Shown here piece by piece: positions 1 to 56,820 of a stretch of DNA of 64,000 nt. The notes beneath the pieces are model-generated. The model worked only from the letters and a program-made list of their open reading frames with translations, searched no databases and had not been told where the DNA came from. This stretch comes from Nannocystis pusilla (GTDB taxonomy: Bacteria; Myxococcota_A; Polyangia; Nannocystales; Nannocystaceae). Both the position numbers and the translations under genes were made by a program. The stretch is taken from NCBI RefSeq assembly GCF_049337375.1, contig NZ_JBMPIV010000015.1; one strand, given 5' to 3'. Position 1 is the first letter of the stretch; every line of letters starts with the position of its first letter.

Positions 1-422
1 AGGGCCAGGCGCGCACGCTCGAGCGCCTGCTGCGGCGCGCGCAGGTGCGGCCCGACGAGGTCGACTTCGTCTGCGCTCACGCGACCAGCACGCCGCTCGG
101 CGACCTGTCCGAGCTCAACGCGATCCGCAAGGTCTTCGGCGACCACGCGAAGAAGCTCAAGATCAACGCGCCGAAGTCGATGCTCGGCCACACCTGCTGG
201 TCGGCGCCGGCGGTCGAGACCGTGGCCGCGATGCTGCAGATGCGCGGCGGTGTGCTCCACCCGTCGATCAACATCGACGAGCTCGACCCCGAGGTCGACG
301 TCGACGTGTGCGCCAACAAGGCGGTCGAACACCGCATCAACCTGATGGTCAAGAACTCGTTCGGCTTCGGCGGCCTCAATTGCTGCGCGCTGTACCGCCG
401 GTGGGACCCGAACAGCCTGTGA
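1..422 (+). CDS. beta-ketoacyl synthase (KS), C-terminal fragment, 5'-partial
   Basis: The translation ends ...NSFGFGGLNCCALYRRW, typical of the FabF/KS C-terminal fold. The ORF runs off the window start. It is followed by a KR, HMGS, two ECH and an ACP. Confidence 0.75.
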   Translation, partial: GQARTLERLLRRAQVRPDEVDFVCAHATSTPLGDLSELNAIRKVFGDHAKKLKINAPKSMLGHTCWSAPAVETVAAMLQMRGGVLHPSINIDELDPEVDVDVCANKAVEHRINLMVKNSFGFGGLNCCALYRRWDPNSL

Positions 423-430
423 GCCGCGCC

Positions 431-1174
431 ATGAACTTCTTCGTCACCGGAGGCTCGCGGGGCATCGGCGCCGGCATCGTGCTCGAGGCGGTGCGCGCCG
501 GCCACGACGTCGCGTTCGCGTACCGCAGCAACGACGACGCGGCGCGCAAGATCGAGGCCGAGGCGGCGGCGATCCGCCCGGGCGCGAAGGTCAAGGGCTA
601 CGCGCTCGACGTGAGCCGCTCGGACCGCGTCGGCGAGGTCGCGGACGCGGTGCTCGAGGACTTCGACAGCGTCGAGGTGATCGTCAACTGCGCCGGCATC
701 AACCGCGCCAACCTCGTGGTCTCGATGTCCGACGAGGAGTGGCACGACGTGCTAGCGACCAACCTGCACGGCCCGTTCTACGTCGTGCGCGCGTTCCTGC
801 CGGCGATGCTGGCGGCGCGGTTCGGGCGGATCGTCAACATCTCGTCGATCCAGCACAACGGCGCGGCCGGCCAGGCCAACTACGCCGCCAGCAAGGCCGG
901 CCTGCACGGCTTCACCCAGGCGCTCGCCAAGGAGTACGGGCGCAAGGGCATCACCGCCAACGTCGTCGTGCCGGGCTTCTTCGACACCGACATGACGCGC
1001 GAGACCATGCCGCAGGCGGCCAAGGACTACTGGCAGCAGTACTGCCCGATGCCGAAGGGGCGCATGGGCACGCTGGCCGAGCTGGCGGCGACGGTCCTGT
1101 TTTTGGCCACGGGCGGCAGCTTCATCAACGGTCAGGTCGTGCCGGTCACGGGCGGCCTCGACTGGACATACTGA
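431..1174 (+). CDS. fabG: 3-oxoacyl-ACP reductase (SDR, FabG-like ketoreductase)
   Basis: TGGSRGIG Rossmann motif, NAG, and the S...YAASKAG catalytic motif (YxxxK). ATG at 431 lies 8 nt after the KS stop. Confidence 0.85.
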   Translation: MNFFVTGGSRGIGAGIVLEAVRAGHDVAFAYRSNDDAARKIEAEAAAIRPGAKVKGYALDVSRSDRVGEVADAVLEDFDSVEVIVNCAGINRANLVVSMSDEEWHDVLATNLHGPFYVVRAFLPAMLAARFGRIVNISSIQHNGAAGQANYAASKAGLHGFTQALAKEYGRKGITANVVVPGFFDTDMTRETMPQAAKDYWQQYCPMPKGRMGTLAELAATVLFLATGGSFINGQVVPVTGGLDWTY

Positions 1175-1188
1175 GAGGGAGGACGGCG

Positions 1189-2430
1189 ATGGCGCACCAC
1201 CGGCCGCGCGTGGGCATCGAGCGGATCACGGCGTACCCGTGCACGCTCTCGCTCGACATGAAGCTGCTCGCGGAGGCGCGCGATCACGATCCGCGCCACC
1301 CGCTCGAGGAGCTGTGGGTCAGCGAGCGCTCGCTCAACCCGACGTGGGAGGATCCGGTGACGATGGCGGTCAACGCCGCGCTGCAGATCGTCCGGCCCGA
1401 GGACCGCAAGGACATCGAGCTCGTGATCGTCGGCACCGAGTCGTCGGTCGACTTCGGCAAGCCGATCTCGACCTACGTGCAGCGCTACTGCGGGCTCACG
1501 GCCAACTGCCGCAACTTCGAGACCAAGCACGCCTGCTACGGCGGCACCGGCGGTCTGATGATGGCGGCCCACTGGGTCGCGTCGGGGGCGGCGCCGGGCA
1601 AGAAGGCGCTGGTGGTCTGCACCGATCAGAGCCGCGTGCACCTCGGCCAGCCGTGGGAGTACGTGCTCGGCGCGGCCGCGACGGCGATGCTGGTCAGCGC
1701 CCAGCCCGACGTCCTCGAGCTCGACCTCGACACCTGCGGCTACTGGACGCAGGAGATCTTCGACACCTACCGCCCGACCTCGACGAAGGAGGTGGGCCAC
1801 GCCGACACCAGCCTGTACGGCTACCTCGACGCGCTCGAGGGCGCCTACGACCACTTCGTCGCCCGCTCGGGCATGGTCGACTACGACGCCGAGTTCGCGC
1901 GCCACATCTACCACGTGCCGTTCGGCGGCATGACCTTCCGCGCCCACCGGGCGCTGCTCCGCCGCGGCCCGCACGAGATGTCGCTGCGCGAGGCCAGGGC
2001 CCACTTCGAGCGCAAGTCGAAGCAGGCGCTGCGCTACAACTCGCGCTTCGGCGGCACCTACACCTCGGCGACCTTCATCGCCATGCTCGGCCTCATCGAC
2101 GCCGACCCCGAGCTGCGCGCCGGCGACAAGGTCTCGATCTTCTCCTACGGCTCGGGCTCGTGCGCCGAGTTCTACCGCGCGACCGTGGGCGAGCGCGCGC
2201 GCGAGCAGGTCGCCAGCCAGCGCGTCGGCGCCGGCCTCGATCGCCGCATGCCGCTGACCATCGAGGAGTACGAGGCGCTCGAGCGCCAGCGCGCCGCCTT
2301 CATCGACCAGAGCGACTACGAGGTCGACCAGTCGGGCCTGCGCGGGCTCTACGAGCGCGCGTACGCCGGCAAGGGTCGCCTCGTGCTCGACGCCGTGCGC
2401 GGCTTCCAGCGGGAGTACCGCCTGTCCTGA
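1189..2430 (+). CDS. HMG-CoA synthase-like beta-branching enzyme (PksG/TaC/MupH family)
   Basis: HMGS fold motifs: ...GTESSVDFGKP..., Cys in CRNFETKHACYGGT, and HVPFGGM. Start re-derived at ATG 1189 (MAHHRPRVGIERITAY) rather than the ORF-track 739. Confidence 0.88.
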   Translation: MAHHRPRVGIERITAYPCTLSLDMKLLAEARDHDPRHPLEELWVSERSLNPTWEDPVTMAVNAALQIVRPEDRKDIELVIVGTESSVDFGKPISTYVQRYCGLTANCRNFETKHACYGGTGGLMMAAHWVASGAAPGKKALVVCTDQSRVHLGQPWEYVLGAAATAMLVSAQPDVLELDLDTCGYWTQEIFDTYRPTSTKEVGHADTSLYGYLDALEGAYDHFVARSGMVDYDAEFARHIYHVPFGGMTFRAHRALLRRGPHEMSLREARAHFERKSKQALRYNSRFGGTYTSATFIAMLGLIDADPELRAGDKVSIFSYGSGSCAEFYRATVGERAREQVASQRVGAGLDRRMPLTIEEYEALERQRAAFIDQSDYEVDQSGLRGLYERAYAGKGRLVLDAVRGFQREYRLS

Positions 2431-2538
2431 GGCTCCGACCATGCCGCGCCTGTCCTTCGCCACGCCGGCCGCGCCGCCCCTCGGCGTCGTGCGGCCCGGC
2501 CGCTCGTTTCATCGTCTCAGCATTTCGGAGGTGATCGC

Positions 2539-3294
2539 GTGCGCGTCCGCTGCGAAGAGGGCGAGCTAGTTCATCGGCTGTTCCTCGGGACAGGTCCCGG
2601 AGAACATGTCGCATTGGACACCGACGGGATCGCCGCGCTGGCCGAGGCGGTCGAGCAGGCGGTCGCCGGTCCGGCGCGCGCGCTGGTGATCGCCAGCGAG
2701 GGCCCCGAGTTCTGCGCCGGCATGGACCTCGCGGCGGCGCTGCGGACCCCGTCGGCGCAGATGCGCGAGGCCATGCAGCGCTTCGCCGGCTGTCTCGAGC
2801 TGCTGGCGAGCGCGAAGCTGGCGACGATCGCGGTGGTCACGGGCGCGGCCAGCGGCGGCGGGGTCGGCCTGGCGGCCGCGTGCGACCTGGTGGTGGCGGC
2901 GTCGGCGGCCACGTTCGCGCTGCCGGAGCTGCGCTACGGGCTGGTGCCGGCGGTGATCTTCCCGGCGCTCGAGGCCCGGATCGGCGCGCGGCGGACCCGG
3001 CGGCTGGCGCTGACCGGCGAGCTGGTGACCGCGGCCCAGGCCGAGCCGTGGGGCCTCGTCGACGTGGTCGCGGACGACCCGGACAAGGCGCTGCGCGGCC
3101 TCTTGCGCTCGCTGCTGCGCGCGCGCCCGCAGGCGGTGGCGACGCTCAAGCGGATCACCGGGCCGTCGGGGCAGGGCGGGGTGGCCCAGACCGCGGCCGA
3201 CCTCGAGGACCCCGAGCTGCGGGCGGCGCTGGCGGCCCTGCTGGCCGAGGGGCAGGCGCCGCCGTGGTTCGCCAGGCTGAAAGGACAGGAATGA
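2539..3294 (+). CDS. enoyl-CoA hydratase-like ECH1 (PksH/TaX-type dehydratase of the HMGS cassette)
   Basis: Crotonase fold: CAGMDL, ...VVTGAASGGGVGLAAACDLVVA. GGAGG lies 7 nt upstream of GTG 2539. Confidence 0.8.
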   Translation: MRVRCEEGELVHRLFLGTGPGEHVALDTDGIAALAEAVEQAVAGPARALVIASEGPEFCAGMDLAAALRTPSAQMREAMQRFAGCLELLASAKLATIAVVTGAASGGGVGLAAACDLVVAASAATFALPELRYGLVPAVIFPALEARIGARRTRRLALTGELVTAAQAEPWGLVDVVADDPDKALRGLLRSLLRARPQAVATLKRITGPSGQGGVAQTAADLEDPELRAALAALLAEGQAPPWFARLKGQE

Positions 3295-4067
3295 ACGCGC
3301 ATGTCCAAACAGACAGCCTCGTCGAGGTGACGCTCGAGCGCGACGGCGTGGCCGTGCTGACCATGCGCGACGCCGCCGGCAAGAACGCGTTCGGCCGGGC
3401 GTTCGTCGCCGTGCTGACGCGCGCGCTCGAGGACCTCGGCCGGCGCGCCGACGTCCGCGTGGTCGTGATCGCCGGCCTGCCCGAGGTGTTCTCCGCCGGC
3501 GGCGACCGCGACGTCCTGCTCGGCCTCGCCGACGGCACGATCGCCCCGTACGACCTGCTGCTGACGCGGGCGCTGCTCGAGGTGCCGGTGCCGACGATCG
3601 CCGCGATGGCGGGGCCCGCGGTCGGCGGCGGCCTGGTGTTCGGCCTCGCCTGCGACATGGTCGTGATGGCCCGCGAGAGCCGCTACGGCGCCAATTTCAT
3701 GGACCTCGGCTTCACGCCGGGGATGGGCGCGACGCGCCTCGTGCAGTTCGCGTTCGGCGAGTACGTCGGGGCCGAGATGCTGTACGGCTCGCAGTACTTC
3801 CGCGGCGAGCAGCTGGCGGGGCGCGGCCAGGTCAACGCGGTCGTGCCGCGCGCCGAGGTGCTGCCGCGGGCGCTCGACCTGGCGGCGCGGATCGCCGACA
3901 AGCCGCGGGCTGCGCTGCTGTTGCTCAAACGTGCGCTGGCGTTGCCGCGGCGACGGGCCTTCGAGGAGGCGCGCACGGTCGAGTCGATGATGCACGAGGT
4001 ATGCTTCGCCGACCCGGAGACGGTGGCGCGGATCCGCACGAACTACGGGCCAGGCCAGGGAGGATGA
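3291..4067 (+). CDS. enoyl-CoA hydratase-like ECH2 (PksI/TaY-type decarboxylase of the HMGS cassette)
   Basis: Crotonase fold (AGKNAFG..., AMAGPAVGGGLVFGLACD). ATGA start/stop overlap with ECH1. Confidence 0.8.
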   Translation: MNAHVQTDSLVEVTLERDGVAVLTMRDAAGKNAFGRAFVAVLTRALEDLGRRADVRVVVIAGLPEVFSAGGDRDVLLGLADGTIAPYDLLLTRALLEVPVPTIAAMAGPAVGGGLVFGLACDMVVMARESRYGANFMDLGFTPGMGATRLVQFAFGEYVGAEMLYGSQYFRGEQLAGRGQVNAVVPRAEVLPRALDLAARIADKPRAALLLLKRALALPRRRAFEEARTVESMMHEVCFADPETVARIRTNYGPGQGG

Positions 4068-4070
4068 CGC

Positions 4071-4886
4071 TTGCTCAATGACTTCAAGGACAGGGTCGTC
4101 TTGATCACGGGCGGGACGCGCGGCATCGGCCTCGCGTGCGCGCTCGCGTTCGGGCGCCAGGGCGCGCGCACGGTGCTGACGCACCGCTGGGGCTCGGCCG
4201 ACGAGGACGCGCTGAAGGCCCGCTTTATCGCCGCCGGGGCCCCGGCGCCGCTGGTGATCGAGGCCGACGCGTCGCGCGAGGAGGACACCGACAAGCTGAC
4301 CGCGCGGCTCAAGGAGGAGTGCGACGGCGTGTGGGCGTTCATCAGCAACGTCTGCGTGGTCCAGCGCGGCGAAGGGCCGGAGAAGCACACCCGGCGCGCG
4401 CTGTACAAGAGCCTCGAGTACTCGAGCTGGCCGTTCGTCGGCTACCTGCAGGCGCTGCACGCCGCGTTCGGTCGCTACCCCCGCTACGCGCTGGCGATGT
4501 CGTCCGACGGGCCCGACACGCACTACCCCGGCTACGACTACGTGGCGGTGGCCAAGGCGGTGCTGGAGACGTTCGTGCGCTACATGAGCACGCACCTCTA
4601 CGAGCACGGCTGCATCGTCAACGCCCTGCGCACCCGCCAGGTGATGACCGAGAGCTACGAGCAGATGTTCGCCGCCCAGCAGCGCGAGCTGGCGAGCAAG
4701 TTCCCCGAGTTCGCGTGCACGGTCGACGAGGTCGCCGACACGACCCTCGCGCTGTGCAGCGGGCTGTTCGACGCGATGGGCGGGCAAGTGCTGACGCTCG
4801 ACCGCGGCGCGGCGTTCGTCGACAACGTCGCCACGCTCGGGCCGCGGCTCGTCGGCGGCAGCGACAAGGAAGGAGCTCCGGCGTGA
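4071..4886 (+). CDS. FabI/FabL-family (SDR) enoyl-ACP reductase, copy 1
   Basis: TGGTRGIGLA Gly motif. Tyr-x6-Lys (YDYVAVAK) followed by VRYMS, as in FabI (YNVMGLAK...VRYMA). Rare TTG start with GGAGGA 6 nt upstream. Confidence 0.65.
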   Translation: MLNDFKDRVVLITGGTRGIGLACALAFGRQGARTVLTHRWGSADEDALKARFIAAGAPAPLVIEADASREEDTDKLTARLKEECDGVWAFISNVCVVQRGEGPEKHTRRALYKSLEYSSWPFVGYLQALHAAFGRYPRYALAMSSDGPDTHYPGYDYVAVAKAVLETFVRYMSTHLYEHGCIVNALRTRQVMTESYEQMFAAQQRELASKFPEFACTVDEVADTTLALCSGLFDAMGGQVLTLDRGAAFVDNVATLGPRLVGGSDKEGAPA

Positions 4887-5698
4887 TCCTCCGCAACGAC
4901 CTCAAGGGCAAGGCCGTCATCGTCACCGGCGGGACGGCGGGCATCGGCCTGGCGACCGGCCTGCTGTTCGGCAAGTACGGCGCGCACGTGTACCTGACGC
5001 ACCGCTGGGGCTCGGCCGACGAGGACGAGCTGCGGGCCCGCTTCGACGCCGCGGGCGCGCCGGCGCCGACGATCGTCGAGGCCGACGCGTCGCAGGACGA
5101 GGACACCGAGGCGCTGATGGAGGCGGTCAAGCGCGACCACGACGCCGTGTTCGCGCTGATCAGCAACGTGTCGTTCGCCCACGTCAGCAAGTCGCACGAG
5201 GACCTCGACAAGAAGAGCTTCCTGCGCAGCCTCGGCTACAGCGCGTGGCCGTTCGTCGGCTACCTGCAGGCCATCCGCGAGACCTTCGGCCGCTGGCCCC
5301 GTTACGCGGTGGGAATGTCGTCGCGCGGGCCCGAGTACTTCCTCCCGGGCTACGACTTCGTGGCCGCGAGCAAGACCGTGATGGAGACCTTCTGTCGCTA
5401 CCTCACGGCAGATCTGCTCAGTGAGGATGTTCGCATCAACATCCTGCGCGCGAACCCGGTCGAGACTGCATCGCTGGAGGCCACGTTCGGGCCCGACTTC
5501 GTGCCGTTCTGCAAGAAGTACTACTCGGAAGGCTGGTTCATCGACCCCGACGAGGTCGCGGCCGCGGCGCTGGCCCTCTGCAGCGGCCTCATGGACGGCG
5601 TCAAGGGGCAGATTCTGCTACTGGACAGGGGCCTCGGTTTCGCCGACAACGTCGTTCGCCTGTTTTCGGCGCGCGAGCGCCACGGGCTGAGTTTTTGA
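4883..5698 (+). CDS. FabI/FabL-family (SDR) enoyl-ACP reductase, copy 2 (tandem paralog)
   Basis: Paralog of the previous CDS (TGGTAGIGLA; HRWGSADEDE; YDFVAASK). GTGA start/stop overlap. AAGGAAGGAG RBS. Confidence 0.65.
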   Translation: MILRNDLKGKAVIVTGGTAGIGLATGLLFGKYGAHVYLTHRWGSADEDELRARFDAAGAPAPTIVEADASQDEDTEALMEAVKRDHDAVFALISNVSFAHVSKSHEDLDKKSFLRSLGYSAWPFVGYLQAIRETFGRWPRYAVGMSSRGPEYFLPGYDFVAASKTVMETFCRYLTADLLSEDVRINILRANPVETASLEATFGPDFVPFCKKYYSEGWFIDPDEVAAAALALCSGLMDGVKGQILLLDRGLGFADNVVRLFSARERHGLSF

Positions 5699-5761
5699 CC
5701 TTCGCTTCCTGCGAGATTCGCTGCGGGCAACCTGCACCGCGCCCACCAAGGAGAACCGAGA

Positions 5762-6028
5762 ATGAGCACCCGCGATGATGTCTTGGCCGTCGTCAAGCGC
5801 CACCTCGTGGACACCGTCGAAGGGATCGATGCGGCCCAGGTCGACCCCGCCAAGTCGATGAAGGACCTCGGGGCCAACAGCCTCGACATCGTCGAGGTCG
5901 TCTCCTGCAGCATGCGCGAGCTCAAGGTGAAGATCCCCCGCGCCGAGCTCAACAAGCTGACGAACATCAACGAGCTCGTCGACCTGCTGCACAAGACGGT
6001 GCAAGAGAAGCAGGCCGCCGCGTCCTGA
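5762..6028 (+). CDS. acyl carrier protein (free-standing ACP, likely donor ACP of the HMGS cassette)
   Basis: 88 aa with LGANSLDIVEVV (DSL phosphopantetheine-attachment Ser). Confidence 0.85.
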   Translation: MSTRDDVLAVVKRHLVDTVEGIDAAQVDPAKSMKDLGANSLDIVEVVSCSMRELKVKIPRAELNKLTNINELVDLLHKTVQEKQAAAS

Positions 6029-7452: not shown

Positions 7453-7680
7453 TCAGGAGCGCGGCTTGACGTTGTCGGGGACGACGAGCCCCTGCCCGTC
7501 GACGGTCTTCCAGAAGGCGGGCCAGCGCGAGATCTCGCGCAGCGTCGGCAGCACGTCGACGGGGTTGTGCGGGTACGTGCGGCGCAGGAACAGCACCGCG
7601 GCCTCGGCCGACGGCGCCTCGAGGAAGTGCGCCTCGCCGGGCGGGTACTCGTAGCGGAATTTCAGGAGAGGCGGGGTCAC
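7453..7680 (-). CDS. small hypothetical protein (75 aa)
   Basis: GTG start overlaps the upstream stop (GTGA). Non-low-complexity C-terminus ...FLRRTYPHNPVDVLPTLREISRWPAFWKTVDG. Confidence 0.4.
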   Translation of the reverse strand: MTPPLLKFRYEYPPGEAHFLEAPSAEAAVLFLRRTYPHNPVDVLPTLREISRWPAFWKTVDGQGLVVPDNVKPRS

Positions 7681-8285
7681 GGGGCGGGCTTCCGACGGTG
7701 GGTATCCCACAGCACTTCGGGGACGGCGAAGGCGTGGGCCGCGGCGCGGGCGACGACGAAGAACCAGTCGCTCAGGCGATTGATGTAGCGGACGGCCTCG
7801 GGGCGGACCGGCTCGACGCGGGCGAGGGCGACGACGTTGCGCTCGGCGCGGCGGCACACGGTGCGCGCGAGGTGGGCCCAGGCGCCGAGCGGCCCGCCGC
7901 CCGGCAGGATGAAGCTGCGCAGCGGCGGCAGGTCGTGGTTCCACGCGTCGAGCTCGTGCTCGAGGCGCGTGACGTCGGCCTCCTCGACCTTGAGCGGCGC
8001 CTTGCCCTCGGTCGCGCCGGGCGTCGCCAGCTCCGCGCCGAGGTCGAACAGCTCTTGCTGGATCCGCGCCAGCGAGGCGTCGAGCGCGGCCAAGAACTCG
8101 CTGCGCTCGCCGGGCTCACCGACGCGGGAGAGCTCGACGCGCAGCACGCCGATCACCGCGTTGAGCTCGTCGACCTCGCCGTAGGCGGCGACCCGCGGGG
8201 TGTCCTTGCCGACGGTGTCGCCGCTGGCGAGCATCGTGTCGCCGCGGTCGCCGAACTTCGTGTAGACCTTGCTGATGTAGACCAC
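7677..8285 (-). CDS. pduO: ATP:cob(I)alamin adenosyltransferase, PduO-type
   Basis: N-terminal MVYISKVYTKFGDRGDTMLASGD matches the PduO/MMAB signature (KIYTRTGDKGETSL). Confidence 0.85.
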   Translation of the reverse strand: MVYISKVYTKFGDRGDTMLASGDTVGKDTPRVAAYGEVDELNAVIGVLRVELSRVGEPGERSEFLAALDASLARIQQELFDLGAELATPGATEGKAPLKVEEADVTRLEHELDAWNHDLPPLRSFILPGGGPLGAWAHLARTVCRRAERNVVALARVEPVRPEAVRYINRLSDWFFVVARAAAHAFAVPEVLWDTHRRKPAP

Positions 8286-8338
8286 GGGGCTGTCCGATCG
8301 GCCAGGTTTATTCGGGCAGGGGCTCGGGAGCAGGTGCC

Positions 8339-8380
8339 CAGGGACATGCCCGCAAGGACATGTCCCTCAGGACAGTCGGC
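8339..8380. repeat. GGACATGTCC-family palindromic repeat array
   Basis: cagggacatgcccgcaaggacatgtccctcaggacag. Confidence 0.7.
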
Positions 8381-9310
8381 TCAGCGGCCCTTCAGCGCGG
8401 CGATGAGGCGCGGCTGGAGCTCGGGGATGATGACGAACACCCAGCCCAGCTGCGCCTTGACGCCGTCGACGAGGATCGCCCAGCGGTGGCGCTCGTCGAG
8501 CTCGATGACGAAGATCAGGAGGCCGTTGTCGCCCTCGATGATGAACTTGTTGATGCCCTTGGCGAGGGCGTCCTCCGAGCGGGTCAGCGCGTTGTGCAGC
8601 TGCTCGGACAGGCGGTTGAACATGGCGCACGCCTTGGGCGCCGAGTTGATGCCCGCGAGCGACATGCCCGAGGCCTTGCTGATGATGTCGACGCTGATGA
8701 GGCCGCCCATGAGGTGGTCGTCGAGCTCCTCGAGGATGGCCTTCACGACCTTGAGGTCCATGTCTGACAGCTCCTTGTCGCGCGCTGCAACGTTGGGGGC
8801 GGCCGCGTAGGCCGGCGTCGGTGGGGTGATGGGCAGCGGCGGAAGTGGCGGGACGGTGACCGGCGCAGCTCGCTGCGGCTTCTCGATCACCGGCACCGGC
8901 GGAGGGGAGGGCGGCGTCGCGGTGCGTGGCGGCGGCTCGCTGCGCGGCGGCGGCTCGCTGCGCGGCGGCTCGCTGCGCGGCGGGGGCTCGTTGCGCGAAG
9001 CCTCGTCGCGCTGACGGGCCCGGTCCATCAACAACGCGACGATCGAGGTGTGTCGCACCGTCTGCGGGCAGTTCTCGGGCAACTGCGAAGACGAGACGCT
9101 CCCCTCGCGCCAGTCGAGGATCGTGTTGACGGCGTCGTCACCCTGGGCCGCGCCGGTCTCGGCGTGGACGAGGTTGCCGCCCTGGAAAAACATCGCGCCG
9201 ACGCCATGCGGCGACTCGACGGACAGCTTGATCGACATGCGCGACGTCTGCGCAAGTTGCAGGATGTCCCAAAGTTCAAATCCACCGATCTGGGCGATCG
9301 TGGTTGCCAT
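8381..9310 (-). CDS. DUF4388 (N-terminal) - Pro-rich linker - Roadblock/LC7 (C-terminal) fusion protein
   Basis: N-term FELWDILQLAQTSRMSIKLSVE...GAMFFQGGNLVHAETG (DUF4388-like). EPPPRSEPPRSEPPPRSEPPPR repeats. C-term LKVVKAILEELDDHLMGGLISVDIISKASGMSLAGINS (Roadblock-like). ATG 9310 has a GGGGAGG RBS. Confidence 0.65.
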   Translation of the reverse strand: MATTIAQIGGFELWDILQLAQTSRMSIKLSVESPHGVGAMFFQGGNLVHAETGAAQGDDAVNTILDWREGSVSSSQLPENCPQTVRHTSIVALLMDRARQRDEASRNEPPPRSEPPRSEPPPRSEPPPRTATPPSPPPVPVIEKPQRAAPVTVPPLPPLPITPPTPAYAAAPNVAARDKELSDMDLKVVKAILEELDDHLMGGLISVDIISKASGMSLAGINSAPKACAMFNRLSEQLHNALTRSEDALAKGINKFIIEGDNGLLIFVIELDERHRWAILVDGVKAQLGWVFVIIPELQPRLIAALKGR

Positions 9311-9695
9311 TATTCGCCTCCCCGTGGCCCACGTGGGCCGCGACCGCGATCGGAGGGACAGCTCCCGCCGATGTTGGTCTGGGTACAATACCGCGCCTGC
9401 TCATATCTTTGGGACAGGTTCTTCACGCGAGCCTGCGGCGACGCCATCTCAGCCCAGGTCCGTGGGGCCGTAACGGCGTCGCGTGTGTCCCGTCTCACTC
9501 GGATTACGAGGTTTGGCGTCCGAACTAGCATCCGCGCTCGCCGGGCAAGCCTGCGGTCAAGGCTTTTCGCCGGCCACGCTAACACCAGCTTCGGAAAAAA
9601 GCTACGTTGGAGACACCGGACACGCTGCGCGCTGAGTGCGCAGCGCCGCACGAGTCTCCCGGGACCTGGCCGCCCGACCCTGCTCGCATCCCGCG

Positions 9696-11636
9696 TCACC
9701 GCAGCAGGGCGTAGGCCGACGTCACCAGCAAATTGGCGATCGCCAGGGGCACCGCGGCCCGCTCGAGAAAGAAGAGAGCAGCGCGCGCACGCGAGCCGGT
9801 GGCCGACGCGTGCAGCCGCTGCACGAACCATACGACCGCAGCGATCTTCGCCGCCGCCACGACTGCGCCGATGAACAGCACGAGGCCGTGGCCGCTGCCG
9901 GCGAGCGCCGCCGCGGGCAAACCACCGCCAAGGAAACAGGCGACGAACGCCGCCGCGAAGGCGAGTCGTTCGAGCCGTCCTGCCGGCGGCGCGGCCGCGA
10001 CCGCGAGGGCCACTGCAGCGGCGATCGGTTGCACGAAGATTCCCCAAGAGGGAGGGATCGCAGCACCGCCGACGAGCCCCGCTGCTTGCTCCCCCACGAG
10101 CCGCCGTGGATCGAGGGTCCCAAAGGCCAGCAACGGACCGGCGAATGCGGCGGCGAGGGCGAGGTCGCGCGACGCGAGGCGGCGGGCCAGCGCAGCCCGG
10201 TCGACGAGGCGACCGAGGCCGGCGGACACGAGGGCGACGAGATAGACGAGCCAGCCTTCACCGACGGCGATCAGCGACAGCGAAGCACCGCCCCGACCCG
10301 CGGCGCACTGCTCGACGTCCGCCGCCGAGAGGCTGCTGCCGACGCCGTCGAAGCATAGGCCGGGACCGAACGGGAACAGCGCCAGGGCGGCGAGCACCGG
10401 CAGCCAGGTGGTCCAGTTCAGCCGGGTGCGACGCGTCGAAATCCACGCCAGCGCGACGAGCGCGAGCGCCAGGGCGGTGCGGATCGCCGTGCGCCGCAGA
10501 TCGCTCGCGAGGTCGGGCGGCTCCCAGCGGAGCTCGACGATCTGGGGCGCCTCTCCCGCCGCAAAAAGGAGGCGCGCGCTACCGGAGCGAGAGGCGCCGG
10601 CGCGATCGAAGTGGTCGCGGTCGACGCGGAGGCGCAGGCTCACGGCTCCGCCGGCAGCGATCTCCCGCGGGTACTCGCGGTTCTCGATCGAGAAGGCGCC
10701 CCAGTCCGGGGTGCGGGTGTCGAAGCGGATCCGGGTCAACGGCACGGGCGCCGCGCCGTGATTCACGAGCCGCAGCTCGAGACGCTCCGCCGCCGGCGTG
10801 AACACGAGGGTCCCCGGTTCGGGGCGCACGCCCGTCGGCGGCGCGCCGCAGCCGAGCGCGAGGGCGAAGAAGAGGACGCAGGGCGCGGCGGGCGAGGTCG
10901 CGGCGCGGAGGAAGTTGCGACGCGGGAGCGGCGAGCTCGCGTGCGCGACGCGGGCGAGCGGGAGCGGCGAGGCGACCGAAGTGGACAGTCGCAGCGATAC
11001 GGCCGCGAGCGAGGAGCTCGCGCTTGCCGCCAAGCTGCGAAGAAGTGGATGCGGAGACGCTACCGCGAGCGAGGAGCTCGCCAGCGTCTCGTCGACCCCG
11101 CGCATGGCCGAAGCGGACGAAGGCGGCGACGCGACCTCGGGCCGGGTGCTCGCGCTTGCATCAAAGCTGCGAGAAAGCGGGAGCGTCGAGGTGACCTGGG
11201 GCGAGGAACTGACGCGCGTGTCGTCGATCGAAGCGGACGGTCGCAACGAAGCGACCTCGGGCGAGGTGCTCGCGCTTGCCTCGAAGCTGCGGCGAAGTGG
11301 AAGCGGCGACGCGGCCTCGGGCGGGGAGCTCGCTGGCGTCTCGTCGACGACATGCATGACCGAAGCGGACGGTCGCAGCGACGCGACCTCGAGCCGGACG
11401 CTCGCCTCTTCGAGCTGGAAGCTCGCAGGTTCCTCGTCGACGCCAGGCATGGCCGACGCGAGCTCGGGCGAGGAGCTCGCACGAAGCGGCGACTCGAGCT
11501 CGCGCGACACGACGTCCGGCGCCACGCCGTCGCAGGCCCTTGCGGCCAGGTCACTCGCCGACGAGTCCACGCGCAGCGCGACGTCGCGGCTCGCCGACGC
11601 GGGCGCAGGCGAGGCGGCGGCGCGCGGGCGGATCAT
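9696..11636 (-). CDS. large membrane protein: disordered Ser/Ala/Pro-rich repeat N-terminus, one TM, Ig-like middle region, polytopic C-terminus
   Basis: Start placed at ATG 11636 (ATGA overlap with the upstream small-ORF stop) rather than 11750. Four to five ~42-aa repeats (ASLRPSAS..VDETPASS..). Confidence 0.55.
   Translation of the reverse strand: MIRPRAAASPAPASASRDVALRVDSSASDLAARACDGVAPDVVSRELESPLRASSSPELASAMPGVDEEPASFQLEEASVRLEVASLRPSASVMHVVDETPASSPPEAASPLPLRRSFEASASTSPEVASLRPSASIDDTRVSSSPQVTSTLPLSRSFDASASTRPEVASPPSSASAMRGVDETLASSSLAVASPHPLLRSLAASASSSLAAVSLRLSTSVASPLPLARVAHASSPLPRRNFLRAATSPAAPCVLFFALALGCGAPPTGVRPEPGTLVFTPAAERLELRLVNHGAAPVPLTRIRFDTRTPDWGAFSIENREYPREIAAGGAVSLRLRVDRDHFDRAGASRSGSARLLFAAGEAPQIVELRWEPPDLASDLRRTAIRTALALALVALAWISTRRTRLNWTTWLPVLAALALFPFGPGLCFDGVGSSLSAADVEQCAAGRGGASLSLIAVGEGWLVYLVALVSAGLGRLVDRAALARRLASRDLALAAAFAGPLLAFGTLDPRRLVGEQAAGLVGGAAIPPSWGIFVQPIAAAVALAVAAAPPAGRLERLAFAAAFVACFLGGGLPAAALAGSGHGLVLFIGAVVAAAKIAAVVWFVQRLHASATGSRARAALFFLERAAVPLAIANLLVTSAYALLR
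10800..11600. repeat. intragenic tandem DNA repeats (~126 bp x 4-5) encoding the S/A/P-rich repeats
   Basis: Periodic sequence on both strands (e.g. ...gaagcggacggtcgcaacgaagcgacctcgggcgaggtgctcgcgcttgcctcgaagctgcg... recurs). Confidence 0.6.
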
Positions 11637-11980
11637 GGCGCGCGGGTCAGCGAGGGCCACGCGATCGCGGTCGCCAGACCCAGCAGGCCGAGGCCGGCGG
11701 CGCTGACCCAGAGGGCAGGTCCTTCCGGACATGTCGTGCTGGACAGGCACACCGCGGCGGTCGGCGCGAACAGGACCAGGGCCAGCGCGAGCGCGAAGCC
11801 GAGGCCGGCGAGCGCGAGGAGGCCGCCGGTGTCGACGGGCTGGCGCGGGCGCAGCTGCACCAAACTCTCGCCGGTGTCGGTCGCGGCTTGCTGCCTCGCC
11901 CGGGCGCGGACCAGGCCGGCGAGGACCCCGATGAGCCCGACGGCTGCGACGAGCGGCAGGTAGTCGAGCAGGGGGCCCAT
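11633..11980 (-). CDS. small membrane protein (115 aa, 3 TM)
   Basis: ATG directly abuts the macro-domain gene stop (TAA-ATG). Its stop overlaps the downstream start (ATGA). Confidence 0.55.
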   Translation of the reverse strand: MGPLLDYLPLVAAVGLIGVLAGLVRARARQQAATDTGESLVQLRPRQPVDTGGLLALAGLGFALALALVLFAPTAAVCLSSTTCPEGPALWVSAAGLGLLGLATAIAWPSLTRAP

Positions 11981-12508
11981 TTACGGGATGTTCCCTTCCA
12001 TGGCCAGCTCGAACACCTCGACGTCGTCGGCGTCCTTGGCCATGAGGAAGGCGCGGAGCGGGCGGTCGCCGCGGTAGACCTTGAGCTCGCTGTGGATCGC
12101 GCGAGCCGCCTCCTCGGCCGGGATCCCGAGCTCGAACGCACCCATCAACGGGACGGCGACGCTCGTGAAGCCCTTGACCTTGCAGGCCACCAGCACGGCC
12201 GCGGTGGCGCGCAGGACGTCCTCGACCTGGACGCGACCGCCGGGGCGATCGGTGTTGGGCACGTGGATGAGGTACTTCGCCTTCATCTTGCCGGCCGGCG
12301 TCACGAACGCGGCGCCGATCGCCAGCGGGGTGTGCTCCTTCACCATCGCCTCGATCTCGCGACCGGCGAGGTCGCGGATCTTGTTGGCCGGGAAGTGACT
12401 CATCACGCCCTCGGAGTTGGTCGGACAGACGAAGGCGTCGACCGCGATCTGCTCCCAGGGCAAGGTCGAGATCTGGATCTCGACGGACTCATTGATGTCG
12501 GTGGCCAC
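11981..12508 (-). CDS. macro-domain (ADP-ribose binding/processing) protein
   Basis: 175 aa. AVDAFVCPTNSEG and an internal Gly-rich region fit the macro fold (cf. ..DAIVNAANSSL..). Confidence 0.55.
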   Translation of the reverse strand: MATDINESVEIQISTLPWEQIAVDAFVCPTNSEGVMSHFPANKIRDLAGREIEAMVKEHTPLAIGAAFVTPAGKMKAKYLIHVPNTDRPGGRVQVEDVLRATAAVLVACKVKGFTSVAVPLMGAFELGIPAEEAARAIHSELKVYRGDRPLRAFLMAKDADDVEVFELAMEGNIP

Positions 12509-12521
12509 GCGCGGACCTTAC

Positions 12522-13013
12522 TCAAGCCTGCAGCATCGAGTCCAGCTCGGCGGCGATCGCGGACTCGGGCTCGTTGCGGACGGTCGAGAGCTCACGAATG
12601 ACCAGGTTCCGGGCGGTCTGCAGCATCTGCCGCTCGCCGTGCGAGAGGTTCTTGGTGTGCTTGAGGAGGCTCAGATCGCGGTACACCTCGCCGACCTCGA
12701 ACAGCGAACCCGTGCGGATCTTCTCCATGAAGCCGCGGTAGCGCCGGTTCCAGGTCTGGCGATCGCACGGGACCTCGTGGTCGCGCAGCAGATCGTAGAG
12801 CTCGTCGATCATCTCGCCGTCGGCGAGGGGACGCATGCCGTTCTCTTCGGCCTTGGCCACCGGCACGATGATCTTCAGGCCAGAGCCGAGGACGCGCAGG
12901 TGATAGAACTGGAAGGGGCGCGACTCGATGATTTTCGTCTCGAGGGCCATGACCTCGGCGACACCGTGAGTCGGGTAAACGGCCTTCTCACCAACGTTGA
13001 ATCGGGGTTGCAT
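12522..13013 (-). CDS. cdnL: CarD-family RNA-polymerase-binding transcription factor
   Basis: MQPRFNVGEKAVYPTHGVAEVMALE... matches the CarD/CdnL N-terminal RNAP-interacting domain. 163 aa. Confidence 0.8.
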   Translation of the reverse strand: MQPRFNVGEKAVYPTHGVAEVMALETKIIESRPFQFYHLRVLGSGLKIIVPVAKAEENGMRPLADGEMIDELYDLLRDHEVPCDRQTWNRRYRGFMEKIRTGSLFEVGEVYRDLSLLKHTKNLSHGERQMLQTARNLVIRELSTVRNEPESAIAAELDSMLQA

Positions 13014-13476
13014 CGGCAGTTCGTCTCCAGGCGTTTGCGCGCGCCCCTCTGCACCTCTTGTGCCGCCGACTCGTCGACGGGCGTCGTGGGGACGATTTCC
13101 CCCACCTTCAGGGTAGTTCGGGACAGTTGGGCCCGGTGCAGTCGAGCTCGGCGCGTCGGCGCAGGGTGCTCCTTAAGCGGAAAAAAGGCCCAGGGGGCCG
13201 ATCGGGGCGATCCTGCGGGTGACTGCGCCGCCAGTGGATGGCGCGGCGGAAAGGGCGAAGAAGCAGCGACAAGCCAAGGGGGTCGGTATTCGGACGGCCG
13301 CCCGGACACCGGTCGGCCACTTGCCGGCCATCGCGAGGCCAGCAGTCAGGTGGCTACTAAGGGTGGCTACGATTGTGGCCACCCCGGACGAGCGGGTTTG
13401 CCCGCCTGTCGGGCAAAGTAGATAGCAGCCGGGTGAGGCGCGTCCAGTGAAAAGAACGGTGTGAACCTGGCATATC

Positions 13477-20369: not shown

Positions 20370-20898
20370 GGCGGGCGCGGAGCATACCAGGGTCGCGCCC
20401 GCAGTGAACCCGTTCGCGAGGCGAGATCCGTGACGTCGACCTCGCACGCACGCCGCGCCTCCGAAGCCGCGGCTCCAGGGACCTCGAAGGGCGGCGCTCG
20501 ACGTACGCGACGGTGCGTCCCGTTCGCGCTTGCTCGGTGGCGATCCCGGGAGGACAGGCGATGTCCCGCTGCGCGCCGACCGGCGAGGGCCACGGCCGAC
20601 GCGAACTGTCAGAGCGGAGGAGGCTTCGAGCGCCGCAGGATCCGACGGAGTAGGCGCAGTCAGGTGAGGCGCGCGTGGGCCTCGGGGAGCCTTGAACTCG
20701 CCGCGAGCGTCTTGGGGTGGGCGAGGATCAGCGTCGGCCGGTGGCGAGCACGTTGGCGATCGCGGGGTAGCCCGATGCGGGGTGCTCGCCCGCAGTTGGG
20801 CCTGCTGTGCTCACCATGATGGTGGGTCCCCTGCTTTCGAATTCGACGCAGAGCCAGGCGCCGTGGGCAGAGACGTCGTGCTTTCCTGTGACGAGCCC

Positions 20899-21795
20899 TC
20901 AGGCGCGCTGGAGCAGATCGAACAGGGCCGGGCGGCGGCGGCGGGGCCACGTCGAGCGCGGATGCGCGAGCGCTCGCCGGCCGCGAGAGACCCGCTGATC
21001 CATGGCCTGGCGAGTCATGCCGTCGAGGGCGACCGGGCGCTCGGCCTGCAGTTCGGTGAGCTCGCGCCGCTCCTCGCCAAGGAGCGCGGCCAAGGCGTTC
21101 TCCAGCAGGACGGCCTCCGGCAGGCGGAGCTCGCGGAGGGCGGCTCGGAGGCGGGCGCGCATGCGCAGCTCCTCGCGGGTGTCCTCGCCGGTGTCGCGCA
21201 GCTCCTCGGCGCGCGACTGGGCGTCGCGGGCCAGCGAGACCGAGGCGGAGGCGAGAAGGACGGTCAGCGGGCGAACTTCGGGATCGGCGAGCTCGGGGTG
21301 ATGGAGGAGCGTCGCGACCTCGGTGTAGGCGATCGCGTCGACGTCGGACTCCTCGCCGCCGACGACCTCGAACTCCTCGCCCCGAAACGCGGTGACGAAC
21401 AGGCGCAGACGGATGGCCTCGAACACCAGCAGCTCCGCCAGCGCGGCCTGGAGGGCGCTGCGCCGGTCGTCGTCGCCGCCGCGGGCGAAGTCGACGAGCA
21501 TGTGCTGCAGCGGCGGATTGCCGACCCCGTTGGCGGCGAGCCGCGCCCATGGCTCCAACTCCTCCGGAATCTCGAGGAAGAGGGCGTCGCGCAGGCCCTG
21601 GTGGAAGCTCTGCAGGGCGGGGAAACGCGGGTCGCGGACCGCGGCCAACAAAGAAAGGCCCTGGCGGCGCGCGCGCAGGGCCTCGTCGGCGAGGACGTCG
21701 AGCTCGGACTGGAGCTCCACCACATCAAGGGGGGCGGCGACGCCGCCACCGGCCGGGAGAGGAAGGAGGTGGGTGACGGCGGCGGCGACGTTCAT
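20899..21795 (-). CDS. hypothetical protein
   Basis: 298 aa of non-low-complexity sequence, co-directional with and downstream of an epimerase. Confidence 0.4.
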   Translation of the reverse strand: MNVAAAVTHLLPLPAGGGVAAPLDVVELQSELDVLADEALRARRQGLSLLAAVRDPRFPALQSFHQGLRDALFLEIPEELEPWARLAANGVGNPPLQHMLVDFARGGDDDRRSALQAALAELLVFEAIRLRLFVTAFRGEEFEVVGGEESDVDAIAYTEVATLLHHPELADPEVRPLTVLLASASVSLARDAQSRAEELRDTGEDTREELRMRARLRAALRELRLPEAVLLENALAALLGEERRELTELQAERPVALDGMTRQAMDQRVSRGRRALAHPRSTWPRRRRPALFDLLQRA

Positions 21796-21837
21796 GGCGT
21801 GCTCAGGGGTTTAACCACCCGCCCGAGGCACGCAAGA

Positions 21838-22719
21838 TCAGGGGCTCGCCGGGGTGTGAGAGGGATGCCGGAGGGCCACGCGCAGCAGCGTCTTCAGGCG
21901 CGCGTTGCCGACCCGCTTGCCGATCGCGGCCGGACCCGCGGGCCGCTCCCACTGCGGGGGCGGTCGCCCGGCGAGGGCGGCGAGGCGAGCGAAGATCTCG
22001 CGCCGCGGGGTGTGGTCGTCGTCGACGACGTTGATGACGCCGCGCTCGTCCGGCGCGAGGGTCAAGGCGGCGAGGACGGCCTGCACTGCGTCCTCGCAGT
22101 GGATGAGGTTGGTCGGCTGCATGCCGTCGCCCGCAAGGACTGCGTCGTCACCGGCGCCGCGGTAGAGGCGGAACAGCTCGCGACCCGGACCGTAGAGGCC
22201 GCCGAGGCGGAGGATCGTCCATGGCACTGCGTGGCGCGTGCAGGTGTCTCGCACCAGCTCCTCGGCCTCGCGCTGCACGCGACCTCGCGGCTCGTCGGGC
22301 CACTCGAGGCAGTCGTCGTCGAGCCACGCGTCGCGGTCGGGCAGGGCCGAGGTGGACGAGGTGTAGACGAGGCGGGTGAGCGGGAGGGTGACCGCGGCGG
22401 CGAGCAGGCGCCGGGTGCCCTCGACGTAGAGCTCGCGGCGGTCCTGCTGCTTGCCCGGGGCGTAGCAGACGACCAGCGACTGCGCGCCGGCGAGGACCGC
22501 GGCGATGTCGGCCGGGGCGAGCGCGGCGACGTCGAGCGGGCGGAGCTCGATGCCTTCCGGGACATGTCCTTGCGGCCATGTCCCGGAGCGCGTGGTCGCA
22601 AGGACAGGCGGATCGCCGACGCCGCCGGTCGCCGCGAGCGCGGCGGCCACGGGGGCGCCGAGGAAGCCGGCGCCGACGACGGCGACCGGGCGAGCGAGAG
22701 GGGACCCGCCGCTGGGCAC
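21838..22719 (-). CDS. NAD-dependent epimerase/dehydratase family protein
   Basis: N-terminal VAVVGAGFLGAPVAAAL Rossmann fold. Putative GTG start 11 nt after the upstream stop. Confidence 0.6.
   Translation of the reverse strand: MPSGGSPLARPVAVVGAGFLGAPVAAALAATGGVGDPPVLATTRSGTWPQGHVPEGIELRPLDVAALAPADIAAVLAGAQSLVVCYAPGKQQDRRELYVEGTRRLLAAAVTLPLTRLVYTSSTSALPDRDAWLDDDCLEWPDEPRGRVQREAEELVRDTCTRHAVPWTILRLGGLYGPGRELFRLYRGAGDDAVLAGDGMQPTNLIHCEDAVQAVLAALTLAPDERGVINVVDDDHTPRREIFARLAALAGRPPPQWERPAGPAAIGKRVGNARLKTLLRVALRHPSHTPASP
22550..22600. repeat. GGACATGTCC-family palindromic repeat array
   Basis: ccgggacatgtccttgcggccatgtcccggag...aaggacagg. Confidence 0.7.
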
Positions 22720-22730
22720 GCGCGGCTCGC

Positions 22731-23483
22731 TCAGAACGACACGCCGCCGCCGAGCAGGAGGTTCAGGCGGGCGATGAAGAAGGCCGGGCAGGCGCCGGGG
22801 ACCGCGCCGCAGCCGTAGCCGTAGCGCGGGCCGAAGCTCATGTCGAACTGCGGGAACTGCAGCCACACGATCCAGCGGTCGTCGAGCATGAGCTTGAGAC
22901 CGACGCCGAACTGCAGGTTCGCGGCGTGGTTCGTGTAGTGGTAGTAGGCGCCGTTGTAGTAGTTCCAGCGGTCCGACAGCAGGTGGTAGCCCAGCGAGAC
23001 GTTCGGCGAGATGTAGAGGCCGAGGTCGCGCTTGACCTGGATGTCGTAGGTGAACTTGGGCGCGATGACGAAGCCGAAGCGGCGGTAGCCGAACTCCTCG
23101 TTGAGGAGGACGCCCAGCGCCGGGCCGGAGGCGTTGCCGCTGAAGTGGCCGCTGAACTCCTGCGTCAGCTTGAACGAGCCCCAGTAACCGAAGCCGCCGT
23201 AGCGACAGGGGAAGCCGGGTGCTCCGCAGCCGGGGCCGTAGTAGCCGGCGTCGTAGTAGTACGACGAACCGCCGATGCCCCACGAGGGGCCGATGCCGAA
23301 CAGGAACTGCATCGGGCGAGTGCCTGGTCGCAGCACTCGCGGAACGGCCGCTTCAGCGTTCGAGGGGGCGACCGTGCTGCCGAGGAGGGCGGCGCCGAGC
23401 GCCGCGGTGGCGAGGCCGAAGCGACGTCGGCGACGACCAGTAGTGACAGGCAGGGGACGGTCCGAGGTGGTGGCCTGGGTCAT
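22731..23483 (-). CDS. outer-membrane beta-barrel protein (Gly/Tyr-rich, C-terminal Phe)
   Basis: Signal peptide. Alternating aromatic pattern. C-terminal ...GGGVSF. AGGAG RBS 5 nt upstream of ATG. Confidence 0.6.
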   Translation of the reverse strand: MTQATTSDRPLPVTTGRRRRRFGLATAALGAALLGSTVAPSNAEAAVPRVLRPGTRPMQFLFGIGPSWGIGGSSYYYDAGYYGPGCGAPGFPCRYGGFGYWGSFKLTQEFSGHFSGNASGPALGVLLNEEFGYRRFGFVIAPKFTYDIQVKRDLGLYISPNVSLGYHLLSDRWNYYNGAYYHYTNHAANLQFGVGLKLMLDDRWIVWLQFPQFDMSFGPRYGYGCGAVPGACPAFFIARLNLLLGGGVSF

Positions 23484-32763: not shown

Positions 32764-33325
32764 GGGGCGAAGGATGCGCGAGCGCAGGCGAGGGGCGCAA
32801 GAGGTGGGGACCGGGACGGGCGGCGCCCGCGAGCTGTCCTCGGAGACATGACCCTCCGGACTCGTGACGGGCGCGGCGCCGACCGGGCCGGGCGCGGCAG
32901 TCGTGACGGGACTTACGCGCGCTTGAAGGGGTCTTCAAGAGGATTGGGGATTTTTGTGGGGATCGATAGGTGCGGGAATTGCTTGGGAAGCCGACCGATG
33001 CGGCGTCGCTCCGGGCTGCGATTCACGGTGACGCGTCCCCGCTCGGGGATGCCCGCCGGGTGTTCGTCGCCGAGGCGGCACGCGAGCACGACGAAGACGG
33101 CGGGCGCCGCGAGGTCGAGGCTGTCCGAAGGGGCAGGTTCGGGGCGGATCGGGCTGAAGGTGCTCGGAGCGACGCGCGCCGCTCGCGGGCGGCCGAGGGC
33201 GCCGGGCTGGTGCGGGCCGTCGCTGCGCCGTCATGGGGTGACGATCGATGAGGCCGGGGGGCACCCGCGGCGCGGCGATCGACGAGTTGCGGACGGCCTC
33301 GGTGGCCGCGAGCGAGGAGAAAAGT

Positions 33326-48935: not shown

Positions 48936-49474
48936 GCGACGAGAGCGAGCCGAGCGAGCCGGTGGTCCACGGGGCGCTCATGGGCGGCTTCGCCCAGGCG
49001 TGCGTCAACCTCAACATCGTCGCCGGTCGACGGGCCACCGCGCTGCTGGCCGACATCGACATGGGGCGGTGGTTCCCGCTGTCGAAGTGGATGGAGATCG
49101 AGCGGATGGTCGGCGAGTCGTACGCCAACGTCGAGCCGATCCGGCTCAAGCTCGGCATCGAGATGATGACGTTGTGGTACCACCACGGCCCCGGCAAGGC
49201 GCTCATCCACCGCGGCGCCGACTTTCTGCACTTCCAGACCGGCAGCCACGGCATCGCCAGCGTCATCCGCGGCCCGCGCGAGGTGGTCGGCTCGTTCGAC
49301 CTCGCCGAGTTCGACTCGGAGCGCGGCCACGCCGTGATCCGCTCGTCCACGCCGTTCGACAAGACGATCGAGCGCGGCGTGCTGATCGGCGGGGTGATGG
49401 CGCCCGGCGACCTCTACTACGTCGACGTGACGAACGACGGCGACCCCAACCGGCTCGTGGTGGAGTTCCACTGA
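48932..49474 (+). CDS. hypothetical protein (180 aa), possible sensory/ligand-binding partner
   Basis: GGGGAGG RBS. ATGA overlap with the GRAS gene. No recognised motif. Confidence 0.5.
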   Translation: MSDESEPSEPVVHGALMGGFAQACVNLNIVAGRRATALLADIDMGRWFPLSKWMEIERMVGESYANVEPIRLKLGIEMMTLWYHHGPGKALIHRGADFLHFQTGSHGIASVIRGPREVVGSFDLAEFDSERGHAVIRSSTPFDKTIERGVLIGGVMAPGDLYYVDVTNDGDPNRLVVEFH

Positions 49475-49475
49475 G

Positions 49476-51318: not shown

Positions 51319-51319
51319 C

Positions 51320-56586: not shown

Positions 56587-56820
56587 GCGCTGATCTTTCC
56601 CACGACGTGCGTCGATGCGCCAGCGCCGACCGACGAAATTTCTGTGACGTGGTCGCAAGACCGGCGAGCGGACGGCCCGCGATCCGGCGCACAAGGTAGG
56701 TCCGCGGCGCGAACTTCCTGGGGCGAGGCGTCGCCGCGGTCACGTCTCCGGCGCCCTGCTCGTTCCCCTGGGCTTTTAGCCGGATGTCGGTTGCAACATG
56801 GCGGAAAGGACATGCGAAGG

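Follow-up and report, generated by a model that had tools for sequence, protein, structure and literature searches.

A divergent Roadblock domain at the C-terminus of a PATAN protein

Analysis of a 64,000-nucleotide stretch of Nannocystis pusilla DNA (contig NZ_JBMPIV010000015.1), hereafter the window, revealed that a gene on its minus strand (8381..9310) codes for a 309-residue protein composed of an N-terminal PATAN domain, a proline-rich linker and a C-terminal domain for which structural modeling gives a well-supported Roadblock/LC7 fold. This last domain, here termed RBL (residues ~184-309; 8384..8761, minus strand), is a separate, divergent Roadblock subfamily that has no model in either Pfam or NCBIfam and whose identity is missed by ordinary domain searches; public annotation of the family names the DUF4388 (PATAN) domain and nothing else. 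An earlier note on this DNA had placed the gene at exactly these coordinates, as the open reading frame (ORF) list and the translation confirm, and had read it as a fusion of DUF4388, a proline-rich repeat linker and a Roadblock domain in the last 110 residues. The first two of these calls stand, as does the fold of the third, which occupies ~125 residues and not 110. Searching each half for domains, as that note had suggested, recovered PF14332 in the N-terminal half and no Pfam match in the C-terminal half, where the Roadblock fold emerged through a structural model and profile comparison with hhalign.

The fold assignment derives from an AlphaFold2 model of the domain computed with a 67-sequence family alignment (alignment A4), which had a predicted local distance difference test score (pLDDT) of 94.1 and a predicted template modeling score (pTM) of 0.87. 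The model displays an α-β-β-α-β-β-β-α topology, with the first half formed by α1 (186-199), β1 (204-211), β2 (217-221) and α2 (225-244), and the second half by β3 (255-259), β4 (264-270), β5 (275-282) and α3 (288-306). This α-β-β-α-β-β-β(-α) succession can be superimposed on solved Roadblock structures, and Foldseek searches with the model recovered MglB chains as the top matches (template modeling score 0.77-0.80), with a root-mean-square deviation of 1.8 Å to Myxococcus xanthus MglB. An α/β sandwich of this kind also resembles the GAF, profilin and PAS-like folds, which raises the alternative that the domain is a sensor binding a small molecule or peptide and not a protein partner; we rank this as the least likely of the readings considered here and as highly improbable.

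Neither Pfam nor NCBIfam searches identified a domain in the C-terminal half, and NCBIfam matches to BimA and SemD were dismissed as compositional noise from the proline-rich linker. The Pfam Robl_LC7 model (PF03259) did not match the window protein at E <= 10, nor did it match any of 144 RBL relatives at E <= 0.01; this model has been reported to miss divergent members (PMC4316618). Searches of PDB sequences with three profiles recovered nothing meaningful, the best matches, to ribosomal protein S12 (E = 0.018-0.03) and PCNA (E = 0.24), being judged to be chance, and hhalign comparisons against single MglB and DYNLRB1 sequences were not significant. When the family profile was compared using hhalign with a canonical Roadblock alignment, built from two Pfam-validated Robl_LC7 seeds, the relatives that jackhmmer recovered for them in the collected loci, and an M. 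xanthus MglB sequence, the match extended over 116 co-linear columns with 80.5% probability (E = 1.3e-5) and took in a Leu-Gly that the two sides share where α3 begins. At the level of sequence, RBL is thus likely to be a remote homolog of the Roadblock/LC7 domains.

The most conserved positions of RBL are Asp208, Gly215, Gly220, Asn222, Ala229-Leu/Met230-Phe231, Asp282, Gly289 and Pro296, with Gly220, Asn222 and Ala229-Phe231 spanning the end of β2 into α2, and Gly289 belonging to the Leu-Gly that opens α3. The top conserved motif, S-x-AG-x-N-x-x-P-x-A-x-ALFN, covers β2, the loop that follows it and the start of α2, a surface that we take, from the structures of MglA with MglB, to be the face by which MglB contacts MglA.

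The PATAN domain and the linker

The PATAN domain (Pfam PF14332; DUF4388/PatA_N) covers residues 8-104 (8999..9289, minus strand) and was recovered with E = 4.9e-14 and a score of 52.9 bits (cutoff 25); a precomputed PF14332 match is present in all 96 full-length homologs. The PATAN part (residues 1-106; 8999-9310) is conserved far more strongly than the remainder of the sequence. In 29 aligned orthologs, whose overall identity to the window protein goes down to 61%, this region is invariant at most of its columns, a pattern that suggests that several binding constraints might act on it at once. Judging from its length of ~100 residues, the domain is presumably a short form that lacks the α-helical insertion carried by many PATAN domains (10.1101/2021.06.11.447907). 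PATAN is the output domain of the cyanobacterial PatA-type regulators, binds PilB1 and PilC's N-terminal domain, and is sufficient on its own for output (10.1101/2021.06.11.447907). The window protein shares PATAN with these PATAN-REC proteins (PixG, PixE and PilG of Synechocystis and PatA of Anabaena); however, it lacks their C-terminal receiver (no Response_reg match at E <= 10) and carries the Roadblock-like domain instead.

The two domains are joined by a low-complexity linker of 72 residues (107-178; 8777..8992, minus strand), 39% of which are proline, that opens with the peptide NEPPPRSEPPRSEPPPRSEPPPRT and contains EPPPRS/EPPRS repeats. The EPPPRS repeats are encoded by a tandem repeat in the DNA at 8929..8997, for which Tandem Repeats Finder reports periods of 15/18/33 nt, scores of 83-110 and 92-94% matches. 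Across 97 orthologs the linker varies from 13 to 106 residues (median 66) and shows no sequence conservation; some of them have an acidic linker instead of a proline-rich one. No regular secondary structure was predicted for it by single-sequence AlphaFold2, whose model of the full protein had a pLDDT of 45 and was usable solely as a hint of secondary structure. The linker behaves as an unconstrained spacer that evolves through repeat slippage. A syntenic ortholog on a metagenome contig (Ga0558121_00249; L046:2403-3384) has a frameshift inside a PEPEPE run of the linker: its PATAN half continues in another frame, and its Roadblock half is called separately as a protein of 127 residues that starts, like the stand-alone members of the family, at a conserved methionine equivalent to Met184 of the window protein. 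This break could be an assembly error or genuine repeat slippage.

Phyletic spread and domain architectures of the RBL family

When 1.84 billion cluster representatives were searched exhaustively with HMMER, using a profile of the domain as query, 233 RBL proteins were recovered at E <= 0.001, 84 of them at E <= 1e-10, counted as representatives at 50% clustering. They come from Myxococcota, Desulfobacterota/Thermodesulfobacteriota, Aminicenantes, WOR-3, Anaerolineales and metagenome-assembled genomes (MAGs) labeled as Clostridia. RBL lies at the extreme C-terminus in 136 of 139 well-covered proteins and occurs either alone (56 proteins of ~122-145 residues) or joined to PATAN or REC-PATAN; of the 144 relatives scanned with Pfam, 53 carry DUF4388, 25 Response_reg and one MCPsignal. 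Using the C-terminal alignments as queries, word-indexed searches yielded no more than family fragments and a handful of stand-alone relatives. The PATAN-RBL combination is shared by loci of distant relatives, sometimes within an mglA operon and more often after a two-component pair; this architecture is therefore old and widespread.

Proteins that combine PATAN with a Roadblock domain are an already recognized class of bacterial motility and polarity proteins, of which the window protein is one more member. The PATAN-Robl_LC7 proteins of this class have the same domain order, with PATAN at the N-terminus and the Roadblock fold at the C-terminus. With 23.5 and 28.7 bits, their Roadblock domains exceed the gathering score of 23 set by Pfam, whereas that of the window protein belongs to a separate subfamily with motifs of its own and no Pfam match.

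Contextual connections of RBL proteins and their functional interpretation

Gene neighborhoods were examined in 35 loci of distant relatives, scanned at one genome per species with the alignment of a tight RBL subclade as query and drawn from Desulfobacterota/Thermodesulfobacteriota, Syntrophales, Desulfuromonadaceae, Aminicenantes, WOR-3, Anaerolineales, Clostridia-labeled MAGs and a Polyangiaceae MAG; the neighborhoods of three other relatives (P0121, P0112 and P0124) were on short contigs or uninformative. Two or three RBL genes occur in tandem in at least 10 of the 35 loci, a conserved ORF of 64 residues lies downstream in 10, and genes for GAF-MshEN-T2SSE (PilB-like) ATPases are found near the gene in seven Syntrophaceae-type loci. 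An mglA homolog is encoded within 8 kb in three loci and immediately upstream in two, L011 and L013, both from Thermodesulfobacteriota. These mglA loci carry the most information. The order in L011 is REC-PATAN-Robl_LC7, PATAN-Robl_LC7, MglA homolog, PATAN-RBL and the 64-residue ORF, with the PATAN-Robl_LC7 proteins sharing an operon with both the PATAN-RBL ortholog and the MglA homolog; that in L013 is MglA homolog, PATAN-RBL and the 64-residue ORF. The MglA homolog of L011 is 49% identical to M. xanthus MglA, and the PATAN-RBL protein of these mglA loci has 28% identity to the window protein in an alignment that spans the two domains (E = 8e-27).

The gene, the identity of its domains, the fold, the variability of the linker and the spread of the family are established here, and the structural description is secure; pairing, partners and cellular role are inferred. 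We tentatively favor a role for the window protein in the polarity circuitry of MglA and type IV pili, as a cytoplasmic adaptor of three parts, namely a short PATAN domain, a 72-residue tether and a divergent Roadblock domain, in which a dimerizing Roadblock platform with two tethered PATAN heads would link an MglA-type polarity module to a motility machine. By analogy with all Roadblock proteins of characterized structure, the C-terminal domain would most likely homodimerize, or pair with another Roadblock protein, to form an extended β-sheet platform; the indirect support for dimerization is the tandem RBL paralogs, which are as expected for a domain that pairs. Such a platform could dock a partner, most probably an MglA-type GTPase or a Roadblock regulator akin to MglB or MglC, with the tether serving only as a flexible spacer, and the two PATAN heads on their long tethers might then reach a second partner, for instance the pilus motor or a polar hub. 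In this way the protein would couple the GTPase polarity module to the motility machine with no requirement for a GTPase-activating protein (GAP) activity of its own. Homologs of mglA and mglB are recurrently encoded near PATAN genes (PMC4316618; 10.1101/2021.06.11.447907), and the PATAN proteins MXAN_3211 and MXAN_4965 are among the candidates in a study of SgmX/SopA in M. xanthus.

MglB, the GAP and guanine nucleotide exchange factor (GEF) of MglA in M. xanthus and Thermus thermophilus, is a Roadblock dimer to which one MglA is bound, with Asn37 and Arg98, which position the switch loops of MglA, aiding the GAP reaction and the C-terminal helix contributing to the GEF activity (PMC11016934). 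The window protein is not an MglB ortholog: its domain is only ~11-16% identical to MglB, receives no Robl_LC7 score and, unlike the single-domain MglB, is fused to PATAN via a long tether. The gene is not beside mglA in the examined Nannocystaceae loci, such adjacency being seen only in the distant L011 and L013, where the architecture is the same. The protein ends three residues past α3 and thus has no counterpart of the C-terminal helix, and Asn37 and Arg98 have no conserved equivalents in the uncertain correspondence produced by hhalign and MAFFT. In this mapping, uncertain at ~15% identity, the counterpart of Asn37 is a serine in the window protein and mostly an aspartate in the family, and that of Arg98 falls in the variable β3-β4 turn. 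These absences, the missing mglA neighbor and a fold match that is generic to Roadblock proteins all count against a true MglB-type GAP, in which a dimer of the domain would bind MglA-GTP and stimulate hydrolysis with PATAN merely localizing the activity; we consider this unlikely.

The lack of the C-terminal helix and of equivalents of the two GAP residues also weighs against the polarity adaptor that we favor, and several further observations do so as well. Robl_LC7 has no match at E <= 10 in any of the 67 sequences of alignment A4. A small GTPase gene is absent from the 64-kb window and the examined Nannocystaceae loci, and is found within 8 kb in only three of the 35 distant loci. The gene order that surrounds the gene in Nannocystaceae, from CarD to a PduO-type adenosyltransferase, is absent from the examined distant related loci and offers no functional clue. 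Finally, a HisKA-HATPase kinase is encoded in 24 and an NtrC-type regulator (REC-σ54-activator-HTH_8) in 23 of the 35 loci, and the dominance of such neighbors points to two-component signaling.

The main rival explanation builds on these last neighbors, which are typically placed directly upstream of the gene where the order was inspected. It holds that the protein is a GTPase-independent output adaptor of two-component signaling and that its family, in the forms REC-PATAN-RBL, PATAN-RBL and stand-alone RBL, works downstream of a histidine kinase/σ54 regulator cassette, with PATAN acting on the type IV pilus motor and RBL only dimerizing or docking RBL paralogs, as MglC docks MglB. The presence of REC in 25 and PATAN in 53 of the 144 relatives, the tandem RBL paralogs in at least 10 loci, the PilB-like ATPase genes in the seven Syntrophaceae-type loci and the occurrence of a GTPase nearby in just three of the 35 loci are all in its favor. 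A precedent for a Roadblock paralog that is purely an adaptor is the single-domain MglC of M. xanthus, a paralog of MglB, which two reports describe as an adaptor between RomR and MglB (PMC7949163, PMC10329633). Structurally, MglC is a weaker match to the window domain than MglB, and nothing in this analysis connects the window protein with RomR or MglB. Under this alternative, the Nannocystaceae protein would have descended from a form with REC, lost that domain and come to be controlled through the binding of partners. Against it, the gene in Nannocystaceae lacks REC and has no kinase or response regulator beside it, this architecture lies in an mglA operon at two loci, and we know of no Roadblock protein that acts wholly outside NTPase regulation or motor complexes. 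Overall, we view the two-component adaptor as possible, if somewhat doubtful.

A recurrent cassette in L008-L042 comprises the HisKA-HATPase kinase, the σ54 NtrC-type regulator, a (REC-)PATAN-RBL protein, often extra stand-alone RBL paralogs, and the 64-residue ORF, which has no Pfam match and starts with MGAQLEKIFEIVSQKAGLNG. Examples are seen at L015:1311-6189 and L011:1321-8586, and the taxa include Desulfobacterota and Aminicenantes among others. The cassette seems to be undescribed in the literature searched. In actinobacterial conservons the partners of the Roadblock protein CvnB are a kinase, a small GTPase and a DUF742 protein; in contrast, this gene set is absent here, and the kinase of the related loci is paired with a σ54 regulator and not with a GTPase. 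It is conceivable, if on balance rather unlikely, that RBL is an undescribed, database-invisible subfamily that serves, along with PATAN and often REC, as the output module of the kinase/σ54 cassette on type IV pilus-type ATPases, with no small GTPase involved. If true, this would represent a GTPase-independent signaling role for a bacterial Roadblock domain.

The GTPase-regulatory scaffold proposed in the earlier note is plausible and has partial support: relatives adjacent to mglA in two loci and the published connection of PATAN with MglA and MglB speak for such a scaffold, and the presence of a GTPase in only three of 35 loci, the prevalence of kinase and σ54 regulator neighbors and the missing MglB features speak against it. 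That note had also observed that no small GTPase gene is adjacent, and this holds for the entire 64-kb window, in which tblastn with MglA and MglB yielded nothing better than E = 4; the MglB query agrees with the residue numbering in PMC11016934. Similarly, no ORF with the G1-G3-G4 motifs was detected in six frames of the window or of five Nannocystaceae loci of 5.5-21 kb (L001-L006), and local hidden Markov models identified no second Roadblock or PATAN gene in the window.

The gene and its neighborhood in Nannocystaceae

The coding sequence is complete, running on the minus strand from an ATG at 9310 to a stop codon at 8383-8381, and is preceded by a Shine-Dalgarno-like GGGGAGG (9317..9323, minus strand) 6 nt 5' of the ATG. 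The G+C fraction at third codon positions (GC3) is 0.90 in the open frame, and the overall GC content of the window is 72%. A search of 5.8 billion proteins recovered 97 homologs with 53-95% identity; the named ones are all from Nannocystis/Nannocystaceae, and the closest, at 95%, is from Nannocystis sp. SCPEA4. Every full-length homolog begins with MATTIAQ or MPTTIAQ; hence, the ATG at 9310 is the start, and the longer ORF initiated by a TTG at 9388 was ruled out as the gene.

The intergenic spacers around the gene measure 385 bp upstream and 95 bp downstream. The latter spacer, between the stop codon and the adenosyltransferase gene, contains an inverted repeat (8340..8367) with 12-nt arms AGGGACATGCCC / GGACATGTCCCT that are 92% complementary and separated by a 4-nt gap. 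It lacks a T-run and is not among the calls of the terminator scan, which reported two sites vs 0.9 expected by chance; it is a possible terminator or operator. A scan of 8100-9900 for σ70 promoters found zero sites, and neither Rfam nor tRNA scans gave a match anywhere in the window.

All the immediate neighbors are encoded on the minus strand: CarD (12522-13172), a Macro domain protein (11981-12508), a small hydrophobic ORF, a membrane protein ORF (9696-11750) directly upstream of the PATAN-Roadblock gene, and a PduO-type cob(I)alamin adenosyltransferase (7677-8285) directly downstream, with the small ORF lying between the genes for the Macro and membrane proteins. This order is kept in four Nannocystaceae genomes, with proteins 53-95% identical. 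Because the more distant related loci examined lack it, we regard it as inherited synteny, and its interpretation as a functional operon was rejected in favor of shared ancestry. A 60/120-bp tandem repeat (11109-11333; 1.8-3.5 copies, 65-78% matches) sits in the long Ser/Ala-rich N-terminal extension of ORF 9696-11750, and the membrane proteins called in relatives are shorter (378-530 residues), which places the true start of this ORF, and with it the status of the repeat, in doubt.

Other features of the window

Downstream of the gene, the region 1-6028, syntenic with L001:12944-20933, harbors a fatty-acid/polyketide-type cluster coding for an acyl carrier protein (5762-6028), two short-chain dehydrogenases, two enoyl-CoA hydratases, a hydroxymethylglutaryl-CoA (HMG-CoA) synthase, a ketoreductase, a ketosynthase, a FabA/ApeI-like dehydratase and an acyltransferase. 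By its gene content it looks like a β-branching or aryl-polyene-like cassette. The GRAS family is best known from transcription regulators of plants; an ORF on the plus strand at 47763-48932 matches the GRAS domain strongly (PF03514, E = 1.7e-35), and after it come genes for a SpoIIE-type phosphatase (49431-50399) and for an adenylate/guanylate cyclase (51155-52405). A Ser/Thr protein kinase of 1083 residues that contains a large TPR region (56824-60072, minus strand) adjoins an ORF of 745 residues with no Pfam match (54505-56739, minus strand). The large high-GC3 ORFs at 20668-22815, 33242-34561 and 53045-54067 also have no Pfam match.

Implications

Since the Robl_LC7 model misses this subfamily, Roadblock proteins are undercounted in Pfam-based surveys, whether these address MglB-like regulators or PATAN architectures, and a profile of its own for the subfamily, derived from alignment A4, would repair this undercount. 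To the recognized class of PATAN-Roadblock proteins, the present case makes the useful addition of a Roadblock domain from a sizeable subfamily that has no database model. The gain is one of better annotation and a shortlist of candidate partners, and not of a new principle. The Nannocystaceae are a little-studied lineage of gliding myxobacteria, and recognition of the Roadblock identity of the C-terminal half turns a protein of unknown function into a testable polarity or motility candidate in this group.
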